From IMG/VR virus record IMGVR_UViG_3300010233_000007: a stretch of DNA of 64,000 nt; one strand, 5' to 3'. This DNA is from an uncultured virus (IMG/VR IMGVR_UViG_3300010233_000007). Lineage: Duplodnaviria > Heunggongvirae > Uroviricota > Caudoviricetes. Position 1 is the stretch's first letter. Each line of letters begins with the position of its first letter. This document shows positions 1,513-45,112 of this stretch, one piece after another. The notes under the pieces are model-generated. The model did not search any database. It was given only the letters and a program-made list of their open reading frames with translations, and had not been told where the DNA came from. Made by a program: the position numbers and the translations under genes.

Positions 1513-1797
1513 ATGGTTCAGATCGTTGATTCGGCTTGTGAGGTTGTAGGCGGTAAGTTAGTGATGGTTATTGAGAGCAATAGCATGGAAGAACTAATGG
1601 ATCATCAGATACACAAGTATGCAGTTGAGCAAGCACATAGATTTGGCTGGCCTAATGCATGTTTGAATGGCTCTGATCCGCCTAGTCCTGTAGATGAGAA
1701 TGGTAATATCCCGGAAACATTTGCAGATATGGCTAAATTGGCTAATACAAAGACCCCACGATTCAGAAAGAAGATATATTTAACTACGAGATTCTAA
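1513..1797 (+). CDS. hypothetical protein
   Basis: AAGGAG RBS upstream, 94 aa. Confidence 0.75.
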   Translation: MVQIVDSACEVVGGKLVMVIESNSMEELMDHQIHKYAVEQAHRFGWPNACLNGSDPPSPVDENGNIPETFADMAKLANTKTPRFRKKIYLTTRF

Positions 1798-3078: not shown

Positions 3079-4059
3079 ATGCAGGCAGCAATTAAAGCAG
3101 CAGTTCCGTTCAAATCAAAACAACCTAAACAATCAGTAGAAGATATTATGAAGAAAGTGCAACAGCACTGTCTTCTAGTTACGTTGAACATTCATTGTTG
3201 GCAAGGCAGACCACAAATAGATGAAGCTAGTGTTTCAATTAATGACGATGAATTAGACGACGAAACCGCGACCCAGCCGCACTGGAAATTAATGCCGAAA
3301 CAATGGCGCGCTAAATTCCAGAATCTAGAAGGTAAAGCCAGAGGGTTAATAAAGCAATACTCTGTGCCGTTTAAACTGCGTGGCGTCTATATAGTGCCGA
3401 TTGTAGATGCCGATGAGTTATTTGGCGGGTTAAGAGAAGTTAGAGATGGTTATGAAAATGTAACCAGTCAATTTGTTGACTGTTACGACGAATGGGTAGA
3501 TGCACTTAGAGCCAAGTATGGTGAAGATAAGTTTAATATGGCTGTTAAGCACATCCCTAGTAAAAAGTATCTCCCACATAAATTTGGCATAGAGTGGGCT
3601 ATTGTGCCTATGGGTCGTCCCGGCGATACTATAGATGATTTTGCCGTATCGGATTTGGTTAGAGAAGCCAAAACAACCATGAATAAAATGATCATTGATT
3701 CGGTAGAAACTATGATCAGACAACCGCGCGAAGAACTAGCTGAAGCGGTGGCATCTCTGACAAAAATGCTTAGTGCAGACGGCAACGGCAGAGTGAAGAC
3801 AGCCTCACTGGAAAAGGTCCAACGATCTTTCAATAAGTATCGGAACTTCGCACAAATGATTGGTGAGGATAGCGCGGCTCTTCAGATAATGAGACAAGTA
3901 GATGCGCAACTGGATGGGCTATCGCCGCAAACACTAAATAGAGACGAACAGATTAGAGATGATCTTCTCGGTGTCTTGTCTTCATTAAAAAATGAGATAG
4001 CCGATGAAGCCAAGACAATTGCTACATTTGATAAGTTTAAACGTAATCTGGAGATTTGA
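3079..4059 (+). CDS. DUF3150-like helical phage protein
   Basis: 326 aa; LNIHCWQG and following helical pattern resemble DUF3150 (by eye). Confidence 0.55.
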   Translation: MQAAIKAAVPFKSKQPKQSVEDIMKKVQQHCLLVTLNIHCWQGRPQIDEASVSINDDELDDETATQPHWKLMPKQWRAKFQNLEGKARGLIKQYSVPFKLRGVYIVPIVDADELFGGLREVRDGYENVTSQFVDCYDEWVDALRAKYGEDKFNMAVKHIPSKKYLPHKFGIEWAIVPMGRPGDTIDDFAVSDLVREAKTTMNKMIIDSVETMIRQPREELAEAVASLTKMLSADGNGRVKTASLEKVQRSFNKYRNFAQMIGEDSAALQIMRQVDAQLDGLSPQTLNRDEQIRDDLLGVLSSLKNEIADEAKTIATFDKFKRNLEI

Positions 4060-8884: not shown

Positions 8885-9196
8885 ATGTCAGATCAAGTTA
8901 TAACCGTGGCTGAACAACCGCAACCAGTGCCAACCACGCCGTTTTTCTCAAATAAACAATCACATATCGTTGTTGTCGATCTTTCAGCTGAAGATTTTGA
9001 CAGCCTCAGTGTAGAAAGCCAAAATGCTGAAGTCGTTGAGGCCATCGGTAATGCGTTCGCTAATTTGACTAATCAGATCGATGCCGGGGAAGTTGATTTC
9101 GATAAACCACTTCGTTCAATTGTTGTCGGTAAACCACACACCGACAACAATACGCAGAAGAAGCTGGTCACAATCGTATTTAGTTTCGATAATTAA
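8885..9196 (+). CDS. hypothetical protein
   Basis: AGGAG RBS, 103 aa. Confidence 0.7.
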   Translation: MSDQVITVAEQPQPVPTTPFFSNKQSHIVVVDLSAEDFDSLSVESQNAEVVEAIGNAFANLTNQIDAGEVDFDKPLRSIVVGKPHTDNNTQKKLVTIVFSFDN

Positions 9197-12100
9197 AAGC
9201 TGAGCGGGTCATCATTCCAATTGCTGTCATAATTACCTAGTGCCTGACTCTGCTCATCTGATAATGCAGTATTTTGGTATTCTACTTCAGACAACACCGG
9301 CCAATTTCCAGTCATATGCCATAAAGCGCAAGCTCCGATGTTTACTGCTTGAGCAAAGTCATCAGGAAACATCGGATTGCGCTGTATGGTGTATATGTCG
9401 CCAGCGTGATGGGTATTAATTTTGTTTTCGATCAAAGCCAAGAAGTCGTGTAATAAGCCAGGATCGTCGTTATTAATATAATCATATTTGAAGAAAAGTA
9501 CCTTCTTTAGTTTAATAGCATGACACGTTAATTGAAGACTTCTAGCTTTATCCACACGCCAGAATGCTCGGCTATTTAGATTGGTCGGAGCCACATACGA
9601 CATATAATCATGTTTGGCGGTTCTGACGTAAGCGATGGGAATAATACGGTCTGGTGAAACTCCCTTATGCACAAGAACAGTTTCACGAATAGAGCCAGCA
9701 CCAGTGTAATCGTGCGCAATCATGTGACAGTCAAATAAGCTAAACAATCGCATACACATTGATGCTTCGCCCATATGATCGTGCGGTGTTAATGATTTCT
9801 TAGCAAAGATCACGTCAATTCTGCCATCACCTCTAATACCCATGACAACGGCAACAGTAAAGCTGACTTCTTTTTCACCGCCGCCGCCCCAGTCGATTGC
9901 TAGAATTCTGTAGTCGTATTGATTTAAAACTTTCAAAGCCTCTTCTTCAGTGTTCTCATGAAGAATAGCGGCTTGTTGTAACTCAGATTGAGTTACAAGT
10001 TTCATGCCTGTATCGTATGATTCGCCTAATACTTCGTTATAAAATCGGCCAATAGTAAAATTACCTTGGCCACGTTGTTTGCCGAGAAGCGACGACCATT
10101 TGTCATTTGACGTAAAGTGAGTTGGCATGATTATCTGTGGAATATGATAACCAGCAAAATTCCAGCGTTTTTCGGGGTACTTGTGAACCCATCTACCTTT
10201 GCGCGGAAATATTGATTTTCTGCATTTAGCACATATCACCGCAGGTTTGGCTTCACTGATATCTTGTCGCCAAGGACCAATCATTTTTTCTACATCATGG
10301 GATAAGCAAGGTACATTATCATAATGACAGGCATCGCATCTAATTACCCACTCCGCGCGACTTGAATCAGACCAAAGACCTTCGATGGTGTTATCTAAAG
10401 TTTTTGGAGTTCCAGTAAACTGTATAACGCCCCAATCATCAGAGCCAGACATGGTTTCTTTGATAATAGGGATATGATCACGATCCATATCTTGAACTTC
10501 ATCTATATTCACCATAGACGCATCAATACCACGAATACGATCAGCATCAAGTAATGCAAACGAGAAAAACAATTGAGAATTGTTTTTGAACGATCTTTGT
10601 AATACCGAATTGACTGTGTTTGTGTTAATTAGAATAGATTTGACGGGCGATGTGTTTATCATCGGCCCAACATTATTCCCAGAAAAACGCCTAATTTGTT
10701 CAAACAATGGTGTGACGGTGAGAATATTAAAATAAGGCTTGCTGGCCGCTAAAAGAATTAACTTGGCAGCGGTAGAGGTCGAATTATGGCTAACTATACC
10801 ATCATAAATATAGTTGTGCCGACCGTCTGTTTCTATGTCAATACTGTCGTTAGCTTCTATGTGTTTAATGAATTTGATTCTATCTACAACTACATCGTTA
10901 TTAACATACTTATTTAACTCTCGATAATTTACATCACGCTGTTTTAACAATCGTGTATATCGTCTCAACATACTAACAGTTGTAGATTTTTGATGTTTTC
11001 TTCTACACAGCAGCATCATGGGCGGTAGTTTTACTGATGCTGCTTGCACAATGTTTTGTAACGTTTTCATCGCTTCTATAGGAACCGATTTACGTTCCTG
11101 TGCTTCTTTCACTTTCACAGACCGTTTGCCGGGCGCTCTAATTAATTTTAAAAATAATTTACATCCAACAGCGGTTATAACGACGACATTATAAACATCT
11201 CTACAACTAACATAATCACCATTTTTAGCCTTATAACCGGCCTTCTTTTGGTGTATCGATGTCGGAATTCCTAACTTATTTAATAATGATCTGACGCCGT
11301 GCGCAAGATTGTAACACGTTGTAGAGTACAAAATATCCGCATGGCCGTGGCGTCGTTTAATCATACCGTCAGTTGCCCACAACCTAGACAAGAATAGAAT
11401 GGTATTCGTTCGCGATAAATCATAAACCCAGTCCGGTAAAGGTTTTTCATATGAGTATTTACCAAGCAATTTATCTTGTACAAACCATTCGACCATTTTG
11501 CTGTTAGTATGACAGCATATTTTTGTATTAATATTGCCATGCTTTTCCAAACGAACAGGGCGACCTTCTTGTAATGCTTCGGCTATTTTTTTAAATTCTT
11601 TTAATACTTTCACCGATTTTGATGTAAATGTTAAATTTCTCTGTACACAGCAGCCGTCGCCTATCATATAAGCTGTCATAATAATCCTACTGCGACATAT
11701 AGGCTTATCAATAAAACTACCGCCGTTTCTAATAGCGACAATCTCATCACCAGGTTTTAAATCCCCGGCTTTTTTGTATCCGGCAAAAGTTAAAAGCCGA
11801 TGTTCAGCGGTTACATATAGTTCTGATCCGAAAGCCGTCTTTAAATATAATCCCGGCTTAACACCTGTGTTGTAGATATTGGTTACAGTGTGCGTTGTCC
11901 ATTTCAATGTTTCATCATTTAAAGCTAATAATTTGTCGCCAATTTTAACATCTGCTGCTTTTATTTGTTTACCGTTAGAGAGTCTTATAAGAGATTTATC
12001 TACTAGCATATTACACTTACTTATTTGACGTGCGGCCTTAACCACGACATTCGATGGAAGTCGAGTTCTGAATAGTGGCTCCATCGCAAAATGATTCTTT

Positions 12101-12252
12101 AGAGTATATGGCTTACCTTTCAAATTCAGTAAAAGAGGTAATAGTGGAACAAGCGTCTGTAAACCTATTCCTTCTTTTTCCACAAACTTCTTAAAAGTAG
12201 TAAGACGTTCATTCCAATTAGTAGACTTTTCAAAATCAATCAAATCATTCAC
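9193..12252 (-). CDS. terL: terminase large subunit (GpA-like) with intein
   Basis: KAARQISK|ST P-loop, IDEVQD Walker B, GTPK, CxxC pairs, AIDWG nuclease motif; probable GTG start at 12252. Confidence 0.85.
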   Translation of the reverse strand: MNDLIDFEKSTNWNERLTTFKKFVEKEGIGLQTLVPLLPLLLNLKGKPYTLKNHFAMEPLFRTRLPSNVVVKAARQISKCNMLVDKSLIRLSNGKQIKAADVKIGDKLLALNDETLKWTTHTVTNIYNTGVKPGLYLKTAFGSELYVTAEHRLLTFAGYKKAGDLKPGDEIVAIRNGGSFIDKPICRSRIIMTAYMIGDGCCVQRNLTFTSKSVKVLKEFKKIAEALQEGRPVRLEKHGNINTKICCHTNSKMVEWFVQDKLLGKYSYEKPLPDWVYDLSRTNTILFLSRLWATDGMIKRRHGHADILYSTTCYNLAHGVRSLLNKLGIPTSIHQKKAGYKAKNGDYVSCRDVYNVVVITAVGCKLFLKLIRAPGKRSVKVKEAQERKSVPIEAMKTLQNIVQAASVKLPPMMLLCRRKHQKSTTVSMLRRYTRLLKQRDVNYRELNKYVNNDVVVDRIKFIKHIEANDSIDIETDGRHNYIYDGIVSHNSTSTAAKLILLAASKPYFNILTVTPLFEQIRRFSGNNVGPMINTSPVKSILINTNTVNSVLQRSFKNNSQLFFSFALLDADRIRGIDASMVNIDEVQDMDRDHIPIIKETMSGSDDWGVIQFTGTPKTLDNTIEGLWSDSSRAEWVIRCDACHYDNVPCLSHDVEKMIGPWRQDISEAKPAVICAKCRKSIFPRKGRWVHKYPEKRWNFAGYHIPQIIMPTHFTSNDKWSSLLGKQRGQGNFTIGRFYNEVLGESYDTGMKLVTQSELQQAAILHENTEEEALKVLNQYDYRILAIDWGGGGEKEVSFTVAVVMGIRGDGRIDVIFAKKSLTPHDHMGEASMCMRLFSLFDCHMIAHDYTGAGSIRETVLVHKGVSPDRIIPIAYVRTAKHDYMSYVAPTNLNSRAFWRVDKARSLQLTCHAIKLKKVLFFKYDYINNDDPGLLHDFLALIENKINTHHAGDIYTIQRNPMFPDDFAQAVNIGACALWHMTGNWPVLSEVEYQNTALSDEQSQALGNYDSNWNDDPLSF
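10783..12015 (-). mobile_element. intein (411 aa) with LAGLIDADG homing endonuclease in the terminase P-loop
   Basis: starts with C, TAEH block B, YMIGDG and LWATDG endonuclease motifs, ends SHN/S. Confidence 0.9.
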
Positions 12253-12261
12253 GAGAAAATT

Positions 12262-12856
12262 ATGCCTCCGAAAGCAAAGCAGAAACCACCAGAGCAATCT
12301 GTTGGATTGGTTGTTAGTGGGATTTTAGATAAGATATCAATAGGCGTAGCTCAGATAGTTTTAGGTATTTATGCGTGTTTTAACGCAGAAACAAAAGCGT
12401 ATCTAGCTAATTACCAGTATATCATCAACAATTTGTCATCTATAGAAAATGGTGAGTAATCATGGCAATTTCCAGTGCTAGACAATATATGCGAAAAGCC
12501 GGTATCAGGTACATTGAGAATCCAGCAGTGTTCAAACGCATTAATGTTCAGGATAATTTGGTCAATACAGTTAAAGCTAAGCTTCCAACTAATGTATCTA
12601 CTTTCATAGACAGGTACGATAGTCCTGATAAAGTTAGACCACCAGCAGGCGGCAGTTAGTTATGACAGATTCGCATTATTACTGGAGTCTGAAGATGAGT
12701 ATGTGGATGGTAGGAGTTGGTTTAGTCACATCATTTCTAGCTCATACCATTTGGCCATTTGTGATTAGTCTTGTTGCTGTTTATTGTACGCATAACTATC
12801 TTAATCGTGTTGAAGCGGCAGAGAAAAAGTACACTAATGGCAAGAAAGATGTATAA
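12262..12856 (+). CDS. three small hypothetical ORFs (12262-12459, 12462-12659, 12662-12856)
   Basis: tightly packed 64-65 aa ORFs; the last is hydrophobic. Confidence 0.55.
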
Positions 12857-15142: not shown

Positions 15143-15208
15143 TTCCCTTTCCTTCCATGTTAGAGAATCCTGATGATTGATTATTGCTCCTTTACAATAA
15201 TCAATCAA

Positions 15209-15281
15209 TGGGCAGTATCCGACTTGAACGGATAACCTCCTGAATGTAACTCAGGCGCTCTGCCAATTGAGCTAACCGCCC
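15209..15281 (-). tRNA. tRNA-Val(TAC), CCA not encoded
   Basis: GGGCGGT/ACTGCCC acceptor, GCTC/GAGC D-stem, CCTGA-GTTACAT-TCAGG, TTCAAGT T-loop. Confidence 0.9.
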
Positions 15282-15598
15282 AGAACTGCAACACTGGTAA
15301 TTGATGTGGTAGGGTCCGTTTACTCTGCCATATTCAGATACGCAATGTTGCAGTCCAACGCTGATGCCCCGATACATTGAAATGAATTTAACCTCTTTGT
15401 TGAGGCGTATCGATCCAGGACCAGGTGAAGATGGGCGAAGATGACGAGAAGTAAGCTGACATTCCAACGAACACACTCGTCCTCTCTCAGATGGAACTTA
15501 GGACTTCACAGGAGTGTATTTGTTAGAAAAGAAAATGTCAGTTTGGATTCTATAAGACGCAGTTGCCAGATCCTCAGACGGATGTGATTGGTCGAAAA

Positions 15599-15833
15599 CG
15601 CCTAGACTTAGCAGCCACCACGCAGGGAACAACCAGCAAAGGCTCGATAATGGTTGTTCGTCCGTATTACTACAGCGACCGCGTTTGAGGTGGGTTTTGT
15701 TCGAACTTTAAACGATGAGAGTTCAGCTTTGAAAACCTGAGCTTTGATCGTTAAGGTTTGAACTTTGAGTTTCGAAAGATTATTAATCTTTTTGGCGGGC
15801 CATTGCTTCTTCCCATTTCGTTAAGTCTAGGCG
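15599..15833 (-). ncRNA. structured RNA containing ten degenerate AAAGYUC heptamers
   Basis: 12-bp closing stem 15599-15610/15822-15833, internal hairpins, heptamer array 15703-15773. Confidence 0.65.
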
Positions 15834-15844
15834 CATCTGTGAAC

Positions 15845-16384
15845 TTACACTTGGACCTGAACAGTTGCGTTCTTCAGAGAAAGCTGTCCATCCAGATTGT
15901 CAGCGATTTCCTGCACTTGTTCGATCCGCTTTCGTAGTTCGGTTTCGTCGATGTTGACGATGATGTCAGTGGCGACAGCTTGGGCGTCATCAGGTTTCAA
16001 TGCGCCTGACTGTCGCGTGGCTTGCTGACGGGCGACATCAATTCTTTGCCTGATCTCGCTCAACTGTTTCAGCTCGACAGCCATCACTTCCCTCTTCCAC
16101 GTCAGCCACTCTGAAATCGATCTGACTTGGCCGGCGATTGTCACTTGTGCCTCGTCGTTGGCCTTCGCGATAGCCCGGCGGATCTTGATGACACGTTCGT
16201 TCAGGTCGCGTACCGATTGCTGCTCGCCAGCCAAGACTTTCTTGCTGCCGCCCTCCTTTTCGAATGGGTCTTTCACGTGACCCGCTCTGGTCAGATGGAT
16301 GTTGATTGTTTCCTGTTTTTTGGCCAGCTTGTTGCGGATCAGCTTCAGTTCTGCCAGCGCCTCCGTGATCGTGATCTGTGCCAT
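15845..16384 (-). CDS. small coiled-coil protein (DIP1984-like pattern, unverified)
   Basis: MAQITITEALAELK...LS.KNAT.V; AGGAG RBS. Confidence 0.8.
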   Translation of the reverse strand: MAQITITEALAELKLIRNKLAKKQETINIHLTRAGHVKDPFEKEGGSKKVLAGEQQSVRDLNERVIKIRRAIAKANDEAQVTIAGQVRSISEWLTWKREVMAVELKQLSEIRQRIDVARQQATRQSGALKPDDAQAVATDIIVNIDETELRKRIEQVQEIADNLDGQLSLKNATVQVQV

Positions 16385-16411
16385 GAGATTCTCCTGAGTT
16401 TTGATCGTTGA

Positions 16412-16439
16412 AACTTTCTAATTACGTAATTAGAAAGTT
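16412..16439. promoter_or_regulatory. perfect 28-bp palindrome; best copy of the TTCTAAT-N6-ATTAGAA box
   Basis: AACTTTCTAATTACGTAATTAGAAAGTT. Confidence 0.7.
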
Positions 16440-16441
16440 AG

Positions 16442-16529
16442 TGTCGCAAGCAAGATTCGAACTTGCACGGAGAATTACCTCCACAGGTGTCTAAAACCTG
16501 CGCGTATTACCAGTTTTCGCCATTGCGAC
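16442..16529 (-). tRNA. tRNA-Leu(TAG)
   Basis: GTCGCAA/TTGCGAC acceptor, CAGGT-TTTAGAC-ACCTG, long variable arm, TTCGAAT T-loop, A73. Confidence 0.9.
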
Positions 16530-23616: not shown

Positions 23617-26600
23617 ATGAGTGATGAGAGCTTTTTCGCCAAAACTATTGCTGAACAAAAATATTGTCATGATAAAGCAGATGGGACGAAGGAGAGTTGG
23701 AGTCAGGTAGCGGAGAGAGTTGCTACGTGTGTTACTAAGCCTTATTTACCGGAGATTACTGAATATATAAGGGAGAGGATTGAACGTAAGGAAATGTTAC
23801 CGGGAGGAAGATGGTTAGCCAATTCAGGTAGAAAATATCCCCAAGTGAATAATTGCGCATTGTTTGATGTGGAGGACAGCCGACAAGATTGGGCAATGTT
23901 GATGAATAATATTGTAAATACGCTCACTACCGGAATGGGGATTGGTGTCGTATACAGTAAGTTAAGAGGTGAAGGTGCATATATTAGTGGCATGGGTGGA
24001 AAATCTTCTGGTCCGTTAAGTTTAATGCAAATGGTTAACGAATGTGGCAGACACATAATGGCCGGTGGAAGTAGAAGATGTCTTGAAGAAAATGCATTAG
24101 TTCATACTAAAATCGGATTAAAGAAAATCAAGGATATCGAAATAGGCCAACTGGTGTTAACTGGTGATGGTAGTTATCACAAAGTTTTAGCAAAACTCGA
24201 TCAAGGTATACAAAACACAGTAAAAATCAAAACTCAGCTTGGTGAATTTGTTTGTACGCCTAATCACAGAATGGCGGTGTTGGCGAATATATATGGTGAA
24301 TATTATTGGAAAGAAGCCAAAGATTTAATCAGTGCAGACAGACTTTTATTCGTAACCAAAACTATACCGGGGCATAAGACTAGATTACCAAAAGACGATA
24401 ATTCCGAATGCGAACACTGGCGAACTAAACAAATAACAATACCTGACCTAGATACAGAAATAGCTTGGTTTTTAGGTTTCTTACATGGCGACGGATGCGT
24501 GCATTATGAATTCAAAAATATTCCCAATAAGGCCAATCGAATCACCATAAATACGCATATTACTGAATATAGTGAATGTAAGAGATTGATAAAAGCCATT
24601 AAAAAATTCGGTATTAAAGCAAAAATAAAACAAGGACATGGTAATTGTTGGTCGGTTTCGGCAGATTCGTTATTACTAACCAAATATTTACTTAAATTTA
24701 AACAATCTAAAGTACCCATGACTATACCTATGTGTATTTTAGAGGGCACACCAGATATTCGTGCGGCTTATTTAGCTGGTGTTTTAGACTCTGATGGTTG
24801 CATTAGTAAGACCATTAGAGCTTGTTGCTCTATTTATAAATCTTATATTTTGCAAGTACAGAATCTATTGGCATCATTAGGAATAGCGTCACGATTAAAA
24901 TTAGACAGGCCAGCTTACGAAAATAGAAAAGATGCATTTAGATTAACTATTAGCGACGTAGGACAGATAGATAAATATATACAGACTATTGGGCCTTATT
25001 CGTGTAAACAATCAAGATTAAAAAAAGCGAAGATATTTCAATCACACCATACTTATTCAGCTCCGGCTAATATGTTGAATATTGATGATAAATGTTGGCA
25101 AAAAACAACATATAATCAAAAAGCTGTATACTATCGTAATGGAAATATACCAATAGACAGTATAAATAAAAGTCATGGGTTCCCAGCATTACTACCTATT
25201 ACAGTTGAAAATGTATCAGCGAATATAGCAATACAAACATACGACATAGAAGTTGCCGGTAGAAATGAATTCGTAGTGAGTGGATTATTGGTACACAATT
25301 CAGCAATATGGTCTGGTTTGCATCATGATCATCCAGATATAGATAAATACATTGATATTAAAAATTGGCCAATTGAAATAAAGAAGCTGAAAGCAAAAGA
25401 TTTCAATTTTCCGGCCACATTAGACATGACTAATATTTCAGTTATTTTAGACGACAACTTTTTCACAGCCTATAATGATACTGACCATCCAAAACATAAA
25501 AGAGCGCACGAAATATACTGGAAAACAGTAAGAAATATGATGATCGCCGGCGAGCCGGGTTTCTCGATAGATGTTGGAGAAAACGCAGGTGAGCACCTTA
25601 GAAACGCTCCTGTTGCCGGTGAAACTCGTGTATTAACAGATACCGGCTATCAGAAAGTTATAGACATTGTAGATAAGCCAGTAACCGTATGGACAGGTTG
25701 GAGTTGGGCAAAAGACGTTAGCTTTAAGCTAACCGGAGTAAAACAGCCAATAATTAAAATAAGTTTAAGTAATGGTAACTATATAAGATGTGAGCCTAAT
25801 CATGAATTTATAGCCGTAGATAGTGACAAAGATATACCAGCATGCGAATTAAATATTAGCACTAAGCTAATGGAAAAACTACCTGATAAAGCGTTTTTTA
25901 ATATCGTAAATATTACCGCCGTAGCTAAAGATGGTTATGATGATGTGTATTGCGCCGACGTCAAACAACCTGAGCATTCTTTTATGGCAGAAGGTGTAAT
26001 TGTAAAAAATTGCACCGAAATAGTATCAAGAGATAATGGCGACGTATGTAATCTTGCAAGTATAAATATAGCAAAAATAAATCATATAGATCAATTTGCT
26101 GAAGCGGTATGGAACACTATTGGCTTTATGTTGTGCGGTACAATTTATGGAAAATTGCCACTGGATATAATGCATACTATACGTGATAAAAATAGACGAC
26201 TTGGATTAGGTTTAATGGGATTACACGAGTGGTTATTAGTTCGTGGTTATAAATATGGCCCAAACCAAGAACTCGGACAATGGTTACAAATATATAAAGA
26301 CACCTCCGACAGTGCGGCTAAATACTGGGCCAATAAACTCGGTATTGTTATTCCTATTAAAAAACGAGCTTTGGCACCAAATGGCAGTATCGGAATTGTC
26401 GCCGACACGACAACATGTTTAGAACCAGTTTTCGCTGTGGCTATAAAACGTCGCTATATGAAAAATAAAAATTGGGTTTTTCAATACATTATTGACGGAG
26501 CGGCTGAAAGAATTATCGCACGCGGGGTAGATCCAGCATTAATTGAAGATGCATATACACTAGCTGAAGATATAGAACGACGAATTGCATTTCAAGCATG

Positions 26601-26898
26601 GATTCAGTCCAACTACGTAGACAACTCTATTTCTAGCACCCTAAATGTGCCGCGCTGGGGATCGTCTATTAACAACGAATCTACAGTAAAATCATTCGGA
26701 AATACTTTAATGAAATACCTTCCACAATTAAGAGGAATAACCACATACCCAGACGGCTCACGTGGCGGTCAGCCATTAACTAGGGTGTCATACCAAGAAG
26801 CCGTAAAACATCTCGGAAAGGAATATATTGAATCAGGGCACGGACAAGAAGAGCTTACTAATGATAGGGCATGTGTTAATGGCGTTTGTGGTATCTGA
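23617..26898 (+). CDS. nrdJ: class II (B12-dependent) ribonucleotide reductase with two inteins
   Basis: PGGR, NNC, GGSRR|SA, RNA|CTE, CNL, RRLGLG, AP.GS, C-terminal C..GVCG; no nrdB-like gene nearby. Confidence 0.85.
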   Translation: MSDESFFAKTIAEQKYCHDKADGTKESWSQVAERVATCVTKPYLPEITEYIRERIERKEMLPGGRWLANSGRKYPQVNNCALFDVEDSRQDWAMLMNNIVNTLTTGMGIGVVYSKLRGEGAYISGMGGKSSGPLSLMQMVNECGRHIMAGGSRRCLEENALVHTKIGLKKIKDIEIGQLVLTGDGSYHKVLAKLDQGIQNTVKIKTQLGEFVCTPNHRMAVLANIYGEYYWKEAKDLISADRLLFVTKTIPGHKTRLPKDDNSECEHWRTKQITIPDLDTEIAWFLGFLHGDGCVHYEFKNIPNKANRITINTHITEYSECKRLIKAIKKFGIKAKIKQGHGNCWSVSADSLLLTKYLLKFKQSKVPMTIPMCILEGTPDIRAAYLAGVLDSDGCISKTIRACCSIYKSYILQVQNLLASLGIASRLKLDRPAYENRKDAFRLTISDVGQIDKYIQTIGPYSCKQSRLKKAKIFQSHHTYSAPANMLNIDDKCWQKTTYNQKAVYYRNGNIPIDSINKSHGFPALLPITVENVSANIAIQTYDIEVAGRNEFVVSGLLVHNSAIWSGLHHDHPDIDKYIDIKNWPIEIKKLKAKDFNFPATLDMTNISVILDDNFFTAYNDTDHPKHKRAHEIYWKTVRNMMIAGEPGFSIDVGENAGEHLRNAPVAGETRVLTDTGYQKVIDIVDKPVTVWTGWSWAKDVSFKLTGVKQPIIKISLSNGNYIRCEPNHEFIAVDSDKDIPACELNISTKLMEKLPDKAFFNIVNITAVAKDGYDDVYCADVKQPEHSFMAEGVIVKNCTEIVSRDNGDVCNLASINIAKINHIDQFAEAVWNTIGFMLCGTIYGKLPLDIMHTIRDKNRRLGLGLMGLHEWLLVRGYKYGPNQELGQWLQIYKDTSDSAAKYWANKLGIVIPIKKRALAPNGSIGIVADTTTCLEPVFAVAIKRRYMKNKNWVFQYIIDGAAERIIARGVDPALIEDAYTLAEDIERRIAFQAWIQSNYVDNSISSTLNVPRWGSSINNESTVKSFGNTLMKYLPQLRGITTYPDGSRGGQPLTRVSYQEAVKHLGKEYIESGHGQEELTNDRACVNGVCGI
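24079..25299 (+). mobile_element. intein 1 (407 aa) with LAGLIDADG endonuclease
   Basis: CLEENALV...TPNH...LGFLHGDG...LAGVLDSDG...LVHN/S. Confidence 0.9.
25609..26010 (+). mobile_element. intein 2 (134 aa), class-3-like mini-intein
   Basis: starts PVAGETRV, block F VYC, ends VKN/C. Confidence 0.8.
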
Positions 26899-44389: not shown

Positions 44390-45112
44390 ATGGCTTTAGT
44401 CAAACAAGTCATTTACCATAAAATAACAAATTTAACCATATTCGAAACAGATGTAGATTTAGTAGATACTACAAATAAACGTCTAGGCGAAGCAGTAAAA
44501 ATCGCAGCCAGCAAAAACATTAACCTTTCCGATGCCAACCTTTACGGTGCCAGCCTTTCCTATGCCAACCTTTACGGTGCCAACCTTTCCGGTGCCAACC
44601 TTTCCGATGCCAACCTTTACGGTGCCAGCCTTTCCTATGCCAACCTTTACGGTGCCAACCTTTACGGTGCCAACCTTTCCGATGCCAACCTTTACGGTGC
44701 CAACTTTTCCGGTGCCAACCTTTACGGTGCCAAAGGTTTAGCTAAGGAGTTTAATACTTTACAGTTATTGGCATATCAACCAGGAGAAATCAGATTATTT
44801 AAATTAGTCACAAACAGTTTTCACAGCCCTATTCAAACACAAAATCCTAGATTTTATTGTATCGGCTCATTTCACGAAATCTTAACCGCTAACACAGATC
44901 CAAATGTAGATTGTGCGGAAGGCATCAATGTGGCAGATTTACCTTGGTGTCTTAGAAATTGGAAGAAAGATTTCAGAATTATATTAGTTAAATTTGAAGC
45001 TAAAGATATAGCATGTATACCGTCAGGTTCAGATGGAAAACTGAGACTGTTTAGGTGTACTGTGGTGGAAGAGATTAAATTAGATTATGTGGCGTTAGGA
45101 TTGGATAAATAA
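44390..45112 (+). CDS. pentapeptide-repeat protein fused to a GKLR-family domain (paralog 5)
   Basis: about 14 A(N/S)L(Y/S)x repeats from 15-bp units (about 44520-44730); C-terminal CAEGINVA...SDGKLR. Confidence 0.85.

Follow-up and report, generated by a model that had tools for sequence, protein, structure and literature searches.

In the 64,000-nt stretch of uncultured tailed-phage DNA analysed here (the window), a 179-aa gene is followed by a 235-nt region rich in phased 7-nt units, and similar units precede the gene's own start codon. This arrangement raises the question of whether gene and RNA form one system and, if they do, what reads the units. The original prediction held that the protein oligomerises on A-rich heptamers, assembles a ribonucleoprotein on the downstream RNA and, when in excess, represses its own translation.

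The elements from which that prediction was drawn are present in the DNA. A perfect 12-nt inverted repeat closes the region, both internal hairpins appear in the minus-strand fold, and the ten units from GAAACTC to AAAGTTC read letter for letter as described on the minus strand at 15703-15773. The sequence of the leader is AAAGTTTC AACGATC AAAACTC AGGAG, within which positions 16393-16409 match 15736-15752 at 16 of 17 nt. The picture of the RNA itself was too simple: stem, hairpins and array all stand, but the array is one element of a scaffold of six helices, two of them pseudoknots (Table 1). Four further features, absent from the earlier description, are a tRNA-Leu gene at the leader, a tRNA-Val gene, a 28-nt palindrome and the pseudoknotted fold around the array. 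The palindrome forms the 5' start of the leader, its 3' arm overlapping the first leader heptad, and could be a 5' hairpin or an operator. After 3' processing of tRNA-Leu(UAG), the 5' end of the mRNA would sit at ~16440. The RNA of the window starts 8-11 nt past the gene's stop codon.

Table 1. Features of the locus in the window, in the order in which they are read on the minus strand.
Feature	Position	Strand	Details
tRNA-Leu (anticodon UAG)	16441..16529	-	ARAGORN; Rfam tRNA 52.4 bits; directly upstream of leader
Perfect 28-nt palindrome AACTTTCTAATTAC/GTAATTAGAAAGTT	16412..16439	-	14-nt arms, 100% complementary, 0 nt between
Leader heptads AAAGTTT(C) AACGATC AAAACTC, then Shine-Dalgarno AGGAG (16395-16391)	16391..16417	-	
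Gene for 179-aa helical protein	15845..16384	-	DIP1984/DUF6847-like fold; distant phrog_1491 (T5.085 family) member
Conserved structured RNA	15596..15836 (R1 match); paired ends 15599-15833	-	R1 144.4 bits, E 1.8e-45
P1 5' strand CGCCTAGACTTAACG	15819..15833	-	partner 15600-15613; perfect 12 bp = 15822-15833 / 15599-15610
P2 5' strand GGGAA (15814-15810) and linker	15803..15814	-	P2 partner TTCCC 15629-15625
Linker AGCAA	15807-15803	-	pairs with UUGCU in the loop of hairpin P5 (pseudoknot a)
Variable region	15767..15802	-	holds small hairpin 15775-15791; tRNA insertion site in relatives
Heptad array, 67 nt: four units, centre AGGTTTTC, four units	15700..15766	-	
Anchor CAAAACC and CCACCT (pseudoknot b 5' strand)	15688..15699	-	CCACCT partner TGGTGG 15615-15620
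Hairpin P4 CUGUA-GUAA-UACGG	15662..15675	-	loop consensus in family AGAGAU
Hairpin P5 GAACAACCA / UGGUUGUUC	15627..15659	-	loop contains the linker's partner (pseudoknot a)
3' strands of P2 (overlaps P5 end), pseudoknot b (TGGTGG 15620-15615) and P1 (CTGC + TAAGTCTAGGCG), then TTTT	15599..15626	-	
tRNA-Val (anticodon UAC)	15208..15282	-	~316 nt downstream of RNA; context

Gene and RNA occur together

A covariance model, R1, was built from 11 copies of the RNA, the window's among them, and searched against the 45 other gene-bearing sources, 8 near-identical loci of the 63 fetched having been left out. R1 matched all 45, once each and always on the gene's strand, with E-values of 3e-49 to 3e-11 in 43 of them; the remaining two matches are shortened by a contig end (L043, E 5.3e-19; L025, E 0.0026 with just 40 nt left). 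Among 17 loci from metagenome-assembled genomes (MAGs) of many phyla, 15 gave a match, and the two misses are contigs that end inside the gene. The prediction that homologues would carry the 3' array is thus borne out in every non-training source and in 15 of 15 assessable MAG loci. When loci were sought by the RNA instead, with an exact 16-mer, only 5 of 27 contained it, namely those that encode the protein, the other 22 being chance matches.

The RNA follows the gene in 54 of 56 sources and precedes it in L045 and L056; the gap between stop codon and RNA is 7-21 nt in most loci and 100-370 nt in several. No other neighbour is conserved, the next commonest ORF family occurring in 6 of 56 loci and the Pfam families of the neighbours being diverse. 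A 159-aa upstream ORF, considered as a second conserved protein, was rejected, as it clusters with nothing. The idea of a retron-like ncRNA was set aside; no reverse transcriptase came up among the 60 neighbour proteins of relatives or the 24 window ORFs scanned. Among uncultivated phages, 786 protein clusters of the family were found, and the hosts on which its carriers were isolated, or with which they were binned, include Enterobacteria, Pseudomonas, Bacillus, Clostridioides and Vibrio, as well as MAGs of Chloroflexota, Planctomycetota and Gemmatimonadota.

A pseudoknotted scaffold holds out a heptad array

The covariation support for the RNA fold is strong. Pairing holds in 90.0% of the 2316 cells of the alignment; shuffles give 63.0%, and slid partners 37.5-43.6%. 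Of 45 base pairs, 42 show changes on both sides. Helices 4 and 6 were absent from the model behind the alignment and are still 91% and 83% paired. Covariation shows a closed scaffold: P1 joins the two ends, and P2, a pair of hairpins and a pair of pseudoknots come after it. High conservation is seen at the core's junction nucleotides. The array, a stretch of 66-70 nt in which conserved pairing is slight or absent, is held out by this scaffold. In the window region it is the plus strand that folds with the better energy (-89.1 kcal/mol, z -4.8, versus -72.9, z -3.3, for the minus strand), which we read as a by-product of the quasi-palindromic units, G-U pairs becoming A-C mismatches on the opposite strand. 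A plus-strand RNA was rejected, since all model hits, the P1 G-U pairs and the pseudoknots are on the gene strand, and the RNA is assigned to the minus strand on account of conservation and covariation.

At gathering score, no Rfam 15 family matched the RNA, GOLLD, ROOL, YrlA, tmRNA, 6S and RNase P included; the scan covered the window, 20 metagenomic loci, 7 isolate-phage loci and the T5 region, and returned tRNAs and one tmRNA elsewhere in L048, nothing else. E-value scans of the RNA region gave nothing relevant.

The array itself is built as four heptads, a centre and four heptads, with the unit consensus A-A-A/C-G-N-U-N, a length of 66-70 nt in nearly all members, and columns A1, G4 and U6 conserved with period 7. 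The flavour of the units differs among clades, those of Brizo being U-rich. On the gene strand of the window, phased unit pairs are confined to three places, namely the array, the leader and a coding tandem repeat of 15 nt (44522-44707) that is unrelated. One further phased pair, on the plus strand at 3813, was taken as chance.

Individual units are near-palindromic (AAGCUU, AACGUU). Set against permuted controls, the two halves of the array show no conserved pairing with each other (no more than 41% paired, z no higher than 2.3). The minimum free energy of some arrays is as weak as 0 to -4 kcal/mol, and the natural unit order is only slightly more stable than unit-shuffled versions (mean z -0.6; 19 of 53 below -1, 4 of 53 above +1). 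The array as a conserved hairpin was rejected for its lack of excess pairing and its weak order effect. It is possible that some pairing forms within the array and that the protein reads this structure rather than single strands. We could find no described RNA with this design, a phased, length-fixed heptad array in a pseudoknot frame.

The protein is a helical bundle of DIP1984-like fold

The AF2 model of the protein (pLDDT 88.4) has four long helices and a small sheet assembled from the strands of the two termini and a central hairpin. Conservation is highest in these two terminal strands and the hairpin. The overall fold is that of Corynebacterium diphtheriae DIP1984 (3KDQ; VIA-align Z 11.2 over 152/152 residues, next row 8.4; Foldseek against the DIP1984 structure, probability 1.0, E 2.8e-3). 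One Atlas structure row bears the name 'DIP1984 family protein'. By sequence, 7 of 28 family members match PF20935 (DUF6847) weakly (best E 6e-4), but none reaches the Pfam gathering score and the window protein gives no match at all. As DIP1984 itself has no known function, the likeness explains nothing about the module. No known RNA-binding fold was matched, the best structural match being this protein without assigned function, and a sequence search of solved structures with the family profile gave a chance-level match only. The family is not markedly basic, with a median pI of 6.8 (119 members, range 5.0-9.2); the window protein has a pI of 9.2.

Heptads are enriched at the gene's own start

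Allowing up to 2 mismatches, the 17-mer shared by leader and array occurs in the 64-kb window at these two places only, with 0.02 occurrences expected from 100 shuffles. At least one unit lies at -40..-4 in 20 of 50 loci, compared with 14 of 137 control genes (Fisher p 1.1e-5), and at least two units in 7 of 50 compared with 1 of 137 (p 4.5e-4). The units are positioned just upstream of Shine-Dalgarno sequences; in five loci (L004, L024, L026, L045 and L051) the start codon itself falls inside a unit, AAAGAUG, and in the first four of these a phased unit lies 7 nt upstream of it. Start regions are generally A/G-rich, and a unit is found in 10% of control genes. The leader copy that homologues were predicted to share is therefore enriched without being universal, a tendency and not a rule, and since 30 of 50 loci have a leader without any unit, autoregulation is not a general feature of the family.

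Phage T5 and other isolates carry the module

By tblastn, neither the window protein nor P0006 found a match in 50,697 isolate phage records. The route to the isolates was a weak blastn match of the array (E 0.3), which profile comparison then confirmed, the KKP_3711 member and the family profile aligning over their full length (hhalign probability 93.8%, E 1.7e-7). The window protein itself matches phrog_1491 with E 1.5e-13 (residues 1-143 against profile positions 2-146 of 211). Distant homologues (phrog_1491, T5.085) are found in 702 isolate phage records. Eight isolates were inspected (T5, KKP_3711, PVP-SE1, PN09, BCP8-2, Brizo, phiCDIF1296T and Simmy50), and all eight have an unannotated gap of 364-636 nt after the gene, with an array and an AAAUCC-type anchor. 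Their proteins are longer than the window's (205-217 aa), and so are their RNAs (~310-450 nt), which R1 covers only partly, giving local matches in four of the eight; an energy test of the closing stem did not reach significance in Brizo, Simmy50 and PN09. Between gene and RNA of KKP_3711 stands a terminator-like hairpin, so that co-transcription is not certain everywhere.

T5.085 is annotated as 'tail fiber protein' or hypothetical, and no evidence in this analysis supports a tail fiber function. It has been classed 'unknown/other' and 'Not Fit' (PMC11879866, supplement file 7), and by the latter score the particle is dispensable for T5 in a laboratory host. Identity of the window family with Rad, the anti-retron protein of the T5 family, was considered and rejected, Rad being described as a 189-aa primase/TOPRIM-like protein (10.1101/2023.03.15.532788). 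The pairing of gene and RNA is common to many phages, T5 included, and no published description of it was found: a full-text literature search, with subscription journals outside its coverage, returned no paper that deals with T5.085, with this RNA or with any phage RNA of heptad repeats.

Some of the RNAs host a tRNA

A whole tRNA sits at one fixed site in 16 of 54 RNAs, with many different anticodons, and a T-arm-like hairpin is found in ~10 more; 27 of 54, the window's included, have neither. These counts are locus-level ARAGORN calls, as excised RNAs missed tRNAs that were called in context. The module also adjoins tRNA genes in the window, BCP8-2, Brizo, phiCDIF1296T and PVP-SE1. More broadly, it was seen beside or around tRNA genes in tRNA-rich phages. 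The insert of Simmy50 alone gave a sub-threshold match to the tRNA-like module of YrlA (44.5 bits against a gathering score of 69); YrlA has no match in the window or the metagenomic loci, and no Ro-like neighbour was found in the 60 neighbour proteins scanned.

What reads the heptads

We favour, with moderate confidence, the reading that the 179-aa gene and the 235-nt RNA constitute a self-contained two-part phage module, in which the protein binds the array, forms a ribonucleoprotein and feeds back on its own leader. The RNA would be made from the gene's strand, most likely as a 3' extension of the mRNA. The heptads would be the protein's binding sites, on which several protomers, possibly about one per unit, would line up to give a ribonucleoprotein of fixed size. 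In the window and ~40% of its relatives, 1-3 units stand at the gene's own ribosome binding site or start codon; there, protein exceeding the RNA would occupy its own mRNA and lower translation, by analogy with ribosomal proteins that have rRNA-site mimics. As to purpose, our guess is an accessory role tied to tRNA or to RNA-level host defence. A bolder proposal, which we put forward as doubtful, is that of a new class of phage ribonucleoprotein, in which a double-pseudoknot RNA with a heptad 'ruler' of 66-70 nt counts about eight to ten DIP1984-like protomers into a ring or short filament, with a landing pad for tRNA genes, serving as an early counter-measure against RNA- or tRNA-directed immunity in T5 and hundreds of large virulent phages.

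The heptads might instead be read by a host factor (an RNA-binding protein, 30S/S1 or a ribonuclease), the RNA acting as a sponge or decoy and the phage protein sitting on the pseudoknot core or serving as chaperone or stabiliser. A-rich single-strand motifs are plausible targets for host single-strand RNA binders, and the units occupy a place immediately before Shine-Dalgarno sequences at which A-rich enhancers act; the family of the phage protein is not basic, and the highly conserved core junction nucleotides could be that protein's site. However, across such different hosts, a phage protein that accompanies the RNA is a likelier reader of the 7 nt than one shared host factor, and the clade-varying flavour of the units, U-rich in Brizo, fits co-evolution with that protein. 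We consider a host reader unlikely.

Quite unlikely, in our view, is a tRNA-directed device, a decoy or carrier by which phage tRNAs would be protected or delivered, or host anticodon nucleases distracted, with the insert doing the work and the heptads a tether. The tRNAs at a fixed site, the T-arm-like hairpins, the sub-threshold YrlA match of the Simmy50 insert, the adjoining tRNA genes and a T5.085 that is dispensable in a laboratory host, as counter-defence genes often are, all point that way, but half of the RNAs lack tRNA and T-arm alike, the varied anticodons argue that no single tRNA is the point, and it is the core and array that are conserved, not the insert.

We regard it as improbable that the array makes RNA-RNA contacts, its quasi-palindromic units pairing with another array or with a different RNA and so building multimers like those of ROOL or GOLLD with the protein as an accessory. 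The units do approach palindromes, the C or U at position 5 (71% of 129 units) would pair with the partner's G4, the natural order folds slightly better than shuffled ones, and tRNAs are hosted as in GOLLD. Against this, at most 4 of 7 positions per unit would pair, the C at position 3 (29%) would face an invariant U, several arrays have almost no folding energy, and pairing within arrays does not exceed that of permuted controls. Neither ROOL nor GOLLD, moreover, is known to be strictly linked to a protein gene.

That the RNA is a cis-acting 3' element of the mRNA (for stability, termination or processing) with no role in trans, its likeness to the leader arising from A-rich starts, would suit both its place shortly after the stop codon in most loci and the UUUU that follows the 3' strand of P1 in the window, but is hardly credible, given that a six-helix double pseudoknot with a length-conserved array far exceeds a stabiliser's needs, that tRNA processing would probably cut embedded tRNAs out and so separate RNA from mRNA, that the RNA lies upstream in two loci and at a distance in several others, and that the leader enrichment holds against control genes.

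If our reading of a self-contained module holds, then T5-like, rV5-like, Bastille-like, Otagovirus and jumbo Erwinia phages, together with the many uncultivated phages behind the 786 clusters, carry an unannotated complex-folded RNA with a dedicated protein. The phased array in its pseudoknot frame would point to a metering of protein copies on RNA, the propagated annotation 'tail fiber protein' would be corrected, and the module would be the second case, after GOLLD, of phage RNAs hosting tRNAs. With T5 as a carrier that can be grown on Escherichia coli K-12, ordinary tools suffice to test the question directly.

Comparison with known systems

Analogies with CsrA/CsrB and with type III toxin-antitoxin systems had been proposed for this locus. 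As family membership these do not survive, the protein being helical and DIP1984-like and the units 7 nt long without GGA; as logic, titration of a protein by an RNA with a mimic on the mRNA is possible. Type III systems such as ToxIN also place a repeat RNA next to a protein gene. ToxI-type repeats, however, are ~34-36 nt long, precede the toxin gene and are cleaved by the toxin, which has a nuclease fold, whereas here the units measure 7 nt, the RNA follows the gene in 54 of 56 sources, and the helical protein has no PADLOC or Pfam match to a ToxN/AbiQ/CptN-type endoribonuclease.

GOLLD, which has a tRNA link, and ROOL resemble the module as phage-borne, complex-folded RNAs next to or containing tRNAs. 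The RNA described here is smaller (~225-450 nt), matches neither in Rfam, and has a heptad array and an obligate protein gene, while ROOL and GOLLD are reported to form RNA-only cages (10.1101/2024.12.08.627333). In its short repeats, phased at fixed spacing and in near-constant number, the array recalls the trp leader bound by TRAP, with 11 G/UAG triplets round an 11-mer ring; by that analogy, spacing and number suggest one protomer per unit, even though protein fold, repeat length (7 nt) and setting all differ. CsrB and RsmZ, the RNAs of CsrA and RsmA, share with the module many copies of a short motif also found at ribosome binding sites. CsrA has a small fold, and its sites are GGA in hairpin loops; here, by contrast, the motif is A-A-A/C-G-N-U-N, in a phased, length-fixed array on a pseudoknot scaffold, and the protein is a 179-aa helical bundle with no Pfam or NCBIfam match to CsrA, its gene being adjacent and strictly linked to the RNA.

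Judged by analogy, the logic of the module seems closer to the autogenous control of ribosomal proteins than to CsrA/CsrB or type III toxin-antitoxin systems. The copy of the motif at the start occurs here in 20 of 50 loci only, and the likeness is one of logic, not of family; what the two have in common is a structural RNA target together with a short copy of its motif at the protein's own start.

A structured RNA is strictly linked to the protein gene

Among 1003 candidates, 786 relatives of the 179-aa protein were found at E up to 0.001, nearly all of about 179 aa and without a name. We fetched 63 viral loci encoding such a relative (L numbers). A common layout recurs in the DNA read downstream of their genes. 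It opens with a 5′ motif resembling GCCUUCGGYAGCGAAGUGAGAGAA, whose first base lies 7-21 nt past the stop in most loci; after a variable segment come phased A-rich heptads in a block, then AAAAYCC, a pair of hairpins and UCUCAGGAYGGYGGCUGCU....GGAGGC. R1, a covariance model of this RNA built on 11 copies (alignment A2), was searched against 56 sources, the window plus 55 loci, with eight near-duplicates omitted. Exactly one match was obtained per source in all 56, on the gene's strand every time. Matches in the 11 training sequences are built in; the 45 non-training sources were all matched as well, 43 of them at E 3e-49 to 3e-11, and two loci cut by a contig end were still recovered (L043, E 5.3e-19; L025, E 0.0026, with 40 nt left). 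The RNA lies 3′ of the gene in 54/56 sources and 5′ of it in L045 and L056. Metagenome-assembled genomes of many phyla supplied 17 more loci; the RNA is present in 15, and the remaining two end within the gene. The co-occurrence of a 3′ array with homologues, to which the original prediction pointed, is borne out by the 45/45 and 15/17 counts.

A scan starting from the RNA, with an exact 16-mer, returned 27 loci; five encode the protein and carry the RNA, and 22 lack both. No other conserved neighbour was detected near the gene, the second-largest ORF family occurring in 6/56 loci, and 60 neighbour proteins scanned gave few Pfam matches, including ThyX, HIRAN, SSB, SNF2 helicases and HTH proteins. 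Taken together, these results show that the protein gene and the complex-folded RNA form a strictly linked pair.

The RNA has six helices and two pseudoknots

Pair counts over a 56-sequence alignment define a six-helix structure with two pseudoknots. P1 joins the 5′ and 3′ ends, P2 pairs UGAGA with UCUCA, and P4 and P5 are hairpins. In pseudoknot a, the linker following P2 pairs with loop bases of the final hairpin, and pseudoknot b pairs CCACC, 3′ of the array, with GGUGG just 5′ of the P1 3′ strand, crossing P2. Standard pairs occupy 90.0% of 2316 cells, compared with 63.0% in shuffles (0/500 reach the observed value) and 37.5-43.6% with slid partners, and both-side changes occur in 42/45 pairs. 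Nested helices guided the alignment, and the model contained neither pseudoknot b nor the P5 stem; even so, these two are 91% paired with both-side changes in 5/6 pairs, and 83% paired with such changes in 5/5, respectively. All six helices are found in the window copy. Folded in isolation, the window region gives a better structure on the plus than on the minus strand, which we attribute to the quasi-palindromic units.

Sixteen of the 54 complete RNAs contain a whole tRNA, with many anticodons, starting 18-59 nt from the 5′ end (37-45 nt in 13/16). A T-arm-like hairpin occupies the tRNA site in 11 more, one probably spurious, and 27, the window's included, have neither. tRNA processing would split the tRNA-bearing RNAs in two pieces, which P1, P2 and pseudoknot a could keep joined. 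The RNA insert of Erwinia phage Simmy50 gives a sub-threshold match to the YrlA tRNA-like module (44.5 bits, gathering score 69) and resembles a permuted tRNA, with the T-arm ahead of the acceptor and D-arm. The module of another viral contig (L048) is preceded, at a distance of about 2.2 kb, by a phage-borne tmRNA (78.9 bits, 5′ end cut).

The array is a phased sequence motif of fixed length

Nearly all members have an array of 66-70 nt, counted from the first unit up to the AAAAYCC anchor. Four units stand on each side of a centre some 9 nt long, which is often AGGAUUUC-like, and columns A1, G4 and U6 recur at period 7. Of 129 units selected by A..G.U, 78% have A at position 2; at position 3, A accounts for 55% and C for 29%, and positions 5 and 7 are free. 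No conserved hairpin between the array halves was found, every fold centre showing at most 41% pairing (z at most 2.3 against permuted partners). The natural unit order is slightly more stable than shuffled orders (mean z -0.6 over 53 arrays, with 19 below -1 and 4 above +1), and some arrays have near-zero folding energy. With no conserved hairpin and a weak effect of unit order, what is conserved is thus a motif in the sequence, phased and constant in total length, as a protein reading single-stranded RNA in regular steps would select for.

The array of Vibrio phage Brizo has U-rich units (AAGUGUU AGUUUUU AAGUUUU AAGUAUU ...), unlike the A-rich consensus, and is a possible test case for array-protein co-evolution. 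Elsewhere in the window, a plus-strand ORF contains a tandem repeat with a 15-nt period (minus-strand reading GTAAAGGTTGGCACC-like); it was picked up solely on account of its AAAGGT, spaced every 15 nt, and has no relation to the heptad RNA.

Array units recur at the start of the gene in a subset of loci

In the window, the original prediction had described a perfect 12-nt inverted repeat, two hairpins, ten phased units, leader units (AAAGTTTC AACGATC AAAACTC) reading into AGGAG, and a leader segment nearly identical to part of the array; all are present. The 17-mer of the leader/array match has only two sites in the 64 kb, with 0.02 expected.

Leaders were compared in 50 loci with start codons set by the conserved N terminus, six without the motif being dropped; the controls were 137 other genes from these loci that have a Shine-Dalgarno site. 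At least one AA[AC]GNU unit occurs at -40..-4 in 20/50 loci versus 14/137 controls (p 1.1e-5), and at least two in 7/50 versus 1/137 (p 4.5e-4). Either the units lie 5-10 nt 5′ of the Shine-Dalgarno site (window, L007, L022, L030, L042, L048), or the start codon falls within the unit AAAGAUG (L004, L024, L026, L045, L051); four of these five loci also have a unit in phase 7 nt upstream, L051 being the exception. No unit is found at -40..-4 in 30/50 loci. The expected leader copy is thus upheld as an enrichment among homologues and fails as a general rule: the presence of the array motif at the gene's start region is significant but partial.

The pair is present in cultured phages, T5 included

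A metagenomic RNA array gave a weak blastn match to an unannotated gap in the T5-like Enterobacter phage KKP_3711. This gap lies directly 3′ of the gene for a 213-aa member of phrog_1491, a group of distant homologues of the window protein. The 213-aa protein and the family profile can be aligned over their full length (probability 93.8%, E 1.7e-7), and R1 matches the array locally (30.9 bits, E 1.3e-10). Relatives of the KKP_3711 protein occur in 702 isolate phage records, spanning T5-likes, PVP-SE1, Pseudomonas, Bacillus, Vibrio and Erwinia jumbo phages and one Clostridioides phage.

In T5, the homologue T5.085 is followed 3′ by a 442-nt gap without annotated RNA, which contains a 17-bp closing stem (three G-U pairs), the array, a CAAACC anchor and a CCUAG/CUAGG pseudoknot. 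The T5 record annotates eight further RNAs as "stable RNAs with unknown functions", none at this gap. Six more phages of other clades have an unannotated gap of 364-636 nt 3′ of the gene, with array and anchor in each. The geometry of pseudoknot b and P1 was recovered by script in 7/8 phages and by eye in PN09. R1 gave local matches in 4/8. The closing stem stands out from shuffles in T5, KKP_3711, PVP-SE1 and phiCDIF1296T (equalled in 0/300) and in BCP8-2 (8/300), but not in Brizo, Simmy50 and PN09.

Supplement file 7 of a genome-wide knock-down screen lists T5.085 as "Not Fit", class "unknown/other" (PMC11879866). The "tail fiber protein" label of T5.085 and many relatives matches the PHROG label of phrog_1491 in the phage records; our analysis found no support for it.

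The protein resembles DIP1984

The AlphaFold2 model of the window protein is confident (pLDDT 88.4) and comprises four long helices and a small sheet. Only one structure is clearly related to it, 3KDQ (Foldseek probability 1.0; VIA-align Z 11.2 with 152/152 residues aligned, next row 8.4), which is that of DIP1984, a protein of unknown function. PF20935/DUF6847 matched weakly in 7/28 relatives, and PADLOC gave no match. Invariant residues are concentrated in the N- and C-terminal strands and the central hairpin. With a median pI of 6.8, the family is not basic.

Genomic surroundings

The window encodes a large terminase, ribonucleotide reductase, helicases, DNA polymerase and a UvsX-like recombinase, and looks like part of a large phage. 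Two flanking tRNAs and a perfect palindrome had gone unmentioned in the original prediction; the palindrome could act in the RNA, as a 5′ hairpin giving protection once the tRNA has been processed, or in the DNA, as an operator. Between the RNA 3′ end and tRNA-Val, no ORF stands out (44-91 aa only, one overlapping the tRNA), and a single promoter-like site is present.

Terminase profiles cover only residues ~456-1010 of the terminase ORF, leaving the N-terminal ~450 aa unmatched; an inserted element (intein or homing endonuclease) is possible. The reductase large subunit ORF matches reductase profiles at 8-154 and 552-1093 and, between them, HNH and endonuclease profiles at ~269-481, which looks like an intein or homing-endonuclease insertion.

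Coordinates of the features in the window and in other records
Feature	Record	Position	Strand	Remark
Protein gene	window	15845-16384	minus	179 aa
Inverted repeat	window	15599-15610 / 15822-15833		12 nt, perfect
Hairpins	window	15627-15659; 15775-15791		
Ten phased units	window	15703-15773		
Leader/array match	window	16393-16409; 15736-15752		16/17 identity
tRNA-Leu(UAG)	window	16441-16529		one flank of gene
tRNA-Val	window	15208-15282		other flank of gene
Palindrome	window	16412-16439		28 nt; start of leader, between tRNA-Leu and leader heptads
RNA 3′ end to tRNA-Val	window	15283-15598	minus	~316 nt
Promoter-like site	window	15541-15513		
15-nt tandem repeat	window	44522-44707		
ORF around tandem repeat	window	44390-45112	plus	
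Large terminase ORF	window	9193-12297	minus	1034 aa
Reductase large subunit ORF	window	23617-26898	plus	1093 aa
T5.085	NC_005859	43505-44143	minus	labelled "tail fiber protein"
Brizo U-rich units	L113	~1670-1770		
Simmy50 RNA insert	L115	1653-1716		
tmRNA	L048	1-296		

Interpretation and relation to known systems

We propose that the protein binds the units, with several protomers per RNA. Alternatively, the RNA could act as a sponge for a host factor, multimerise through RNA-RNA contacts, serve as a cis element or be a tRNA device. If the protein does bind the units, free protein would damp its own translation in phages with leader copies, and the particle may play an accessory role early in infection, perhaps linked to tRNAs or to RNA-level defence.

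No family in Rfam 15 matches the RNA, and it belongs to none of the RNA families tested. In the literature covered, with subscription journals mostly outside, we found nothing on T5.085, on the RNA or on a comparable heptad-repeat RNA; an older description of a T5 RNA at this locus is possible. In logic, the pair comes closest to the autogenous control of ribosomal proteins or to sponges of the CsrB type; among RNAs, GOLLD and ROOL are nearest in habit, and among proteins DIP1984 is nearest.
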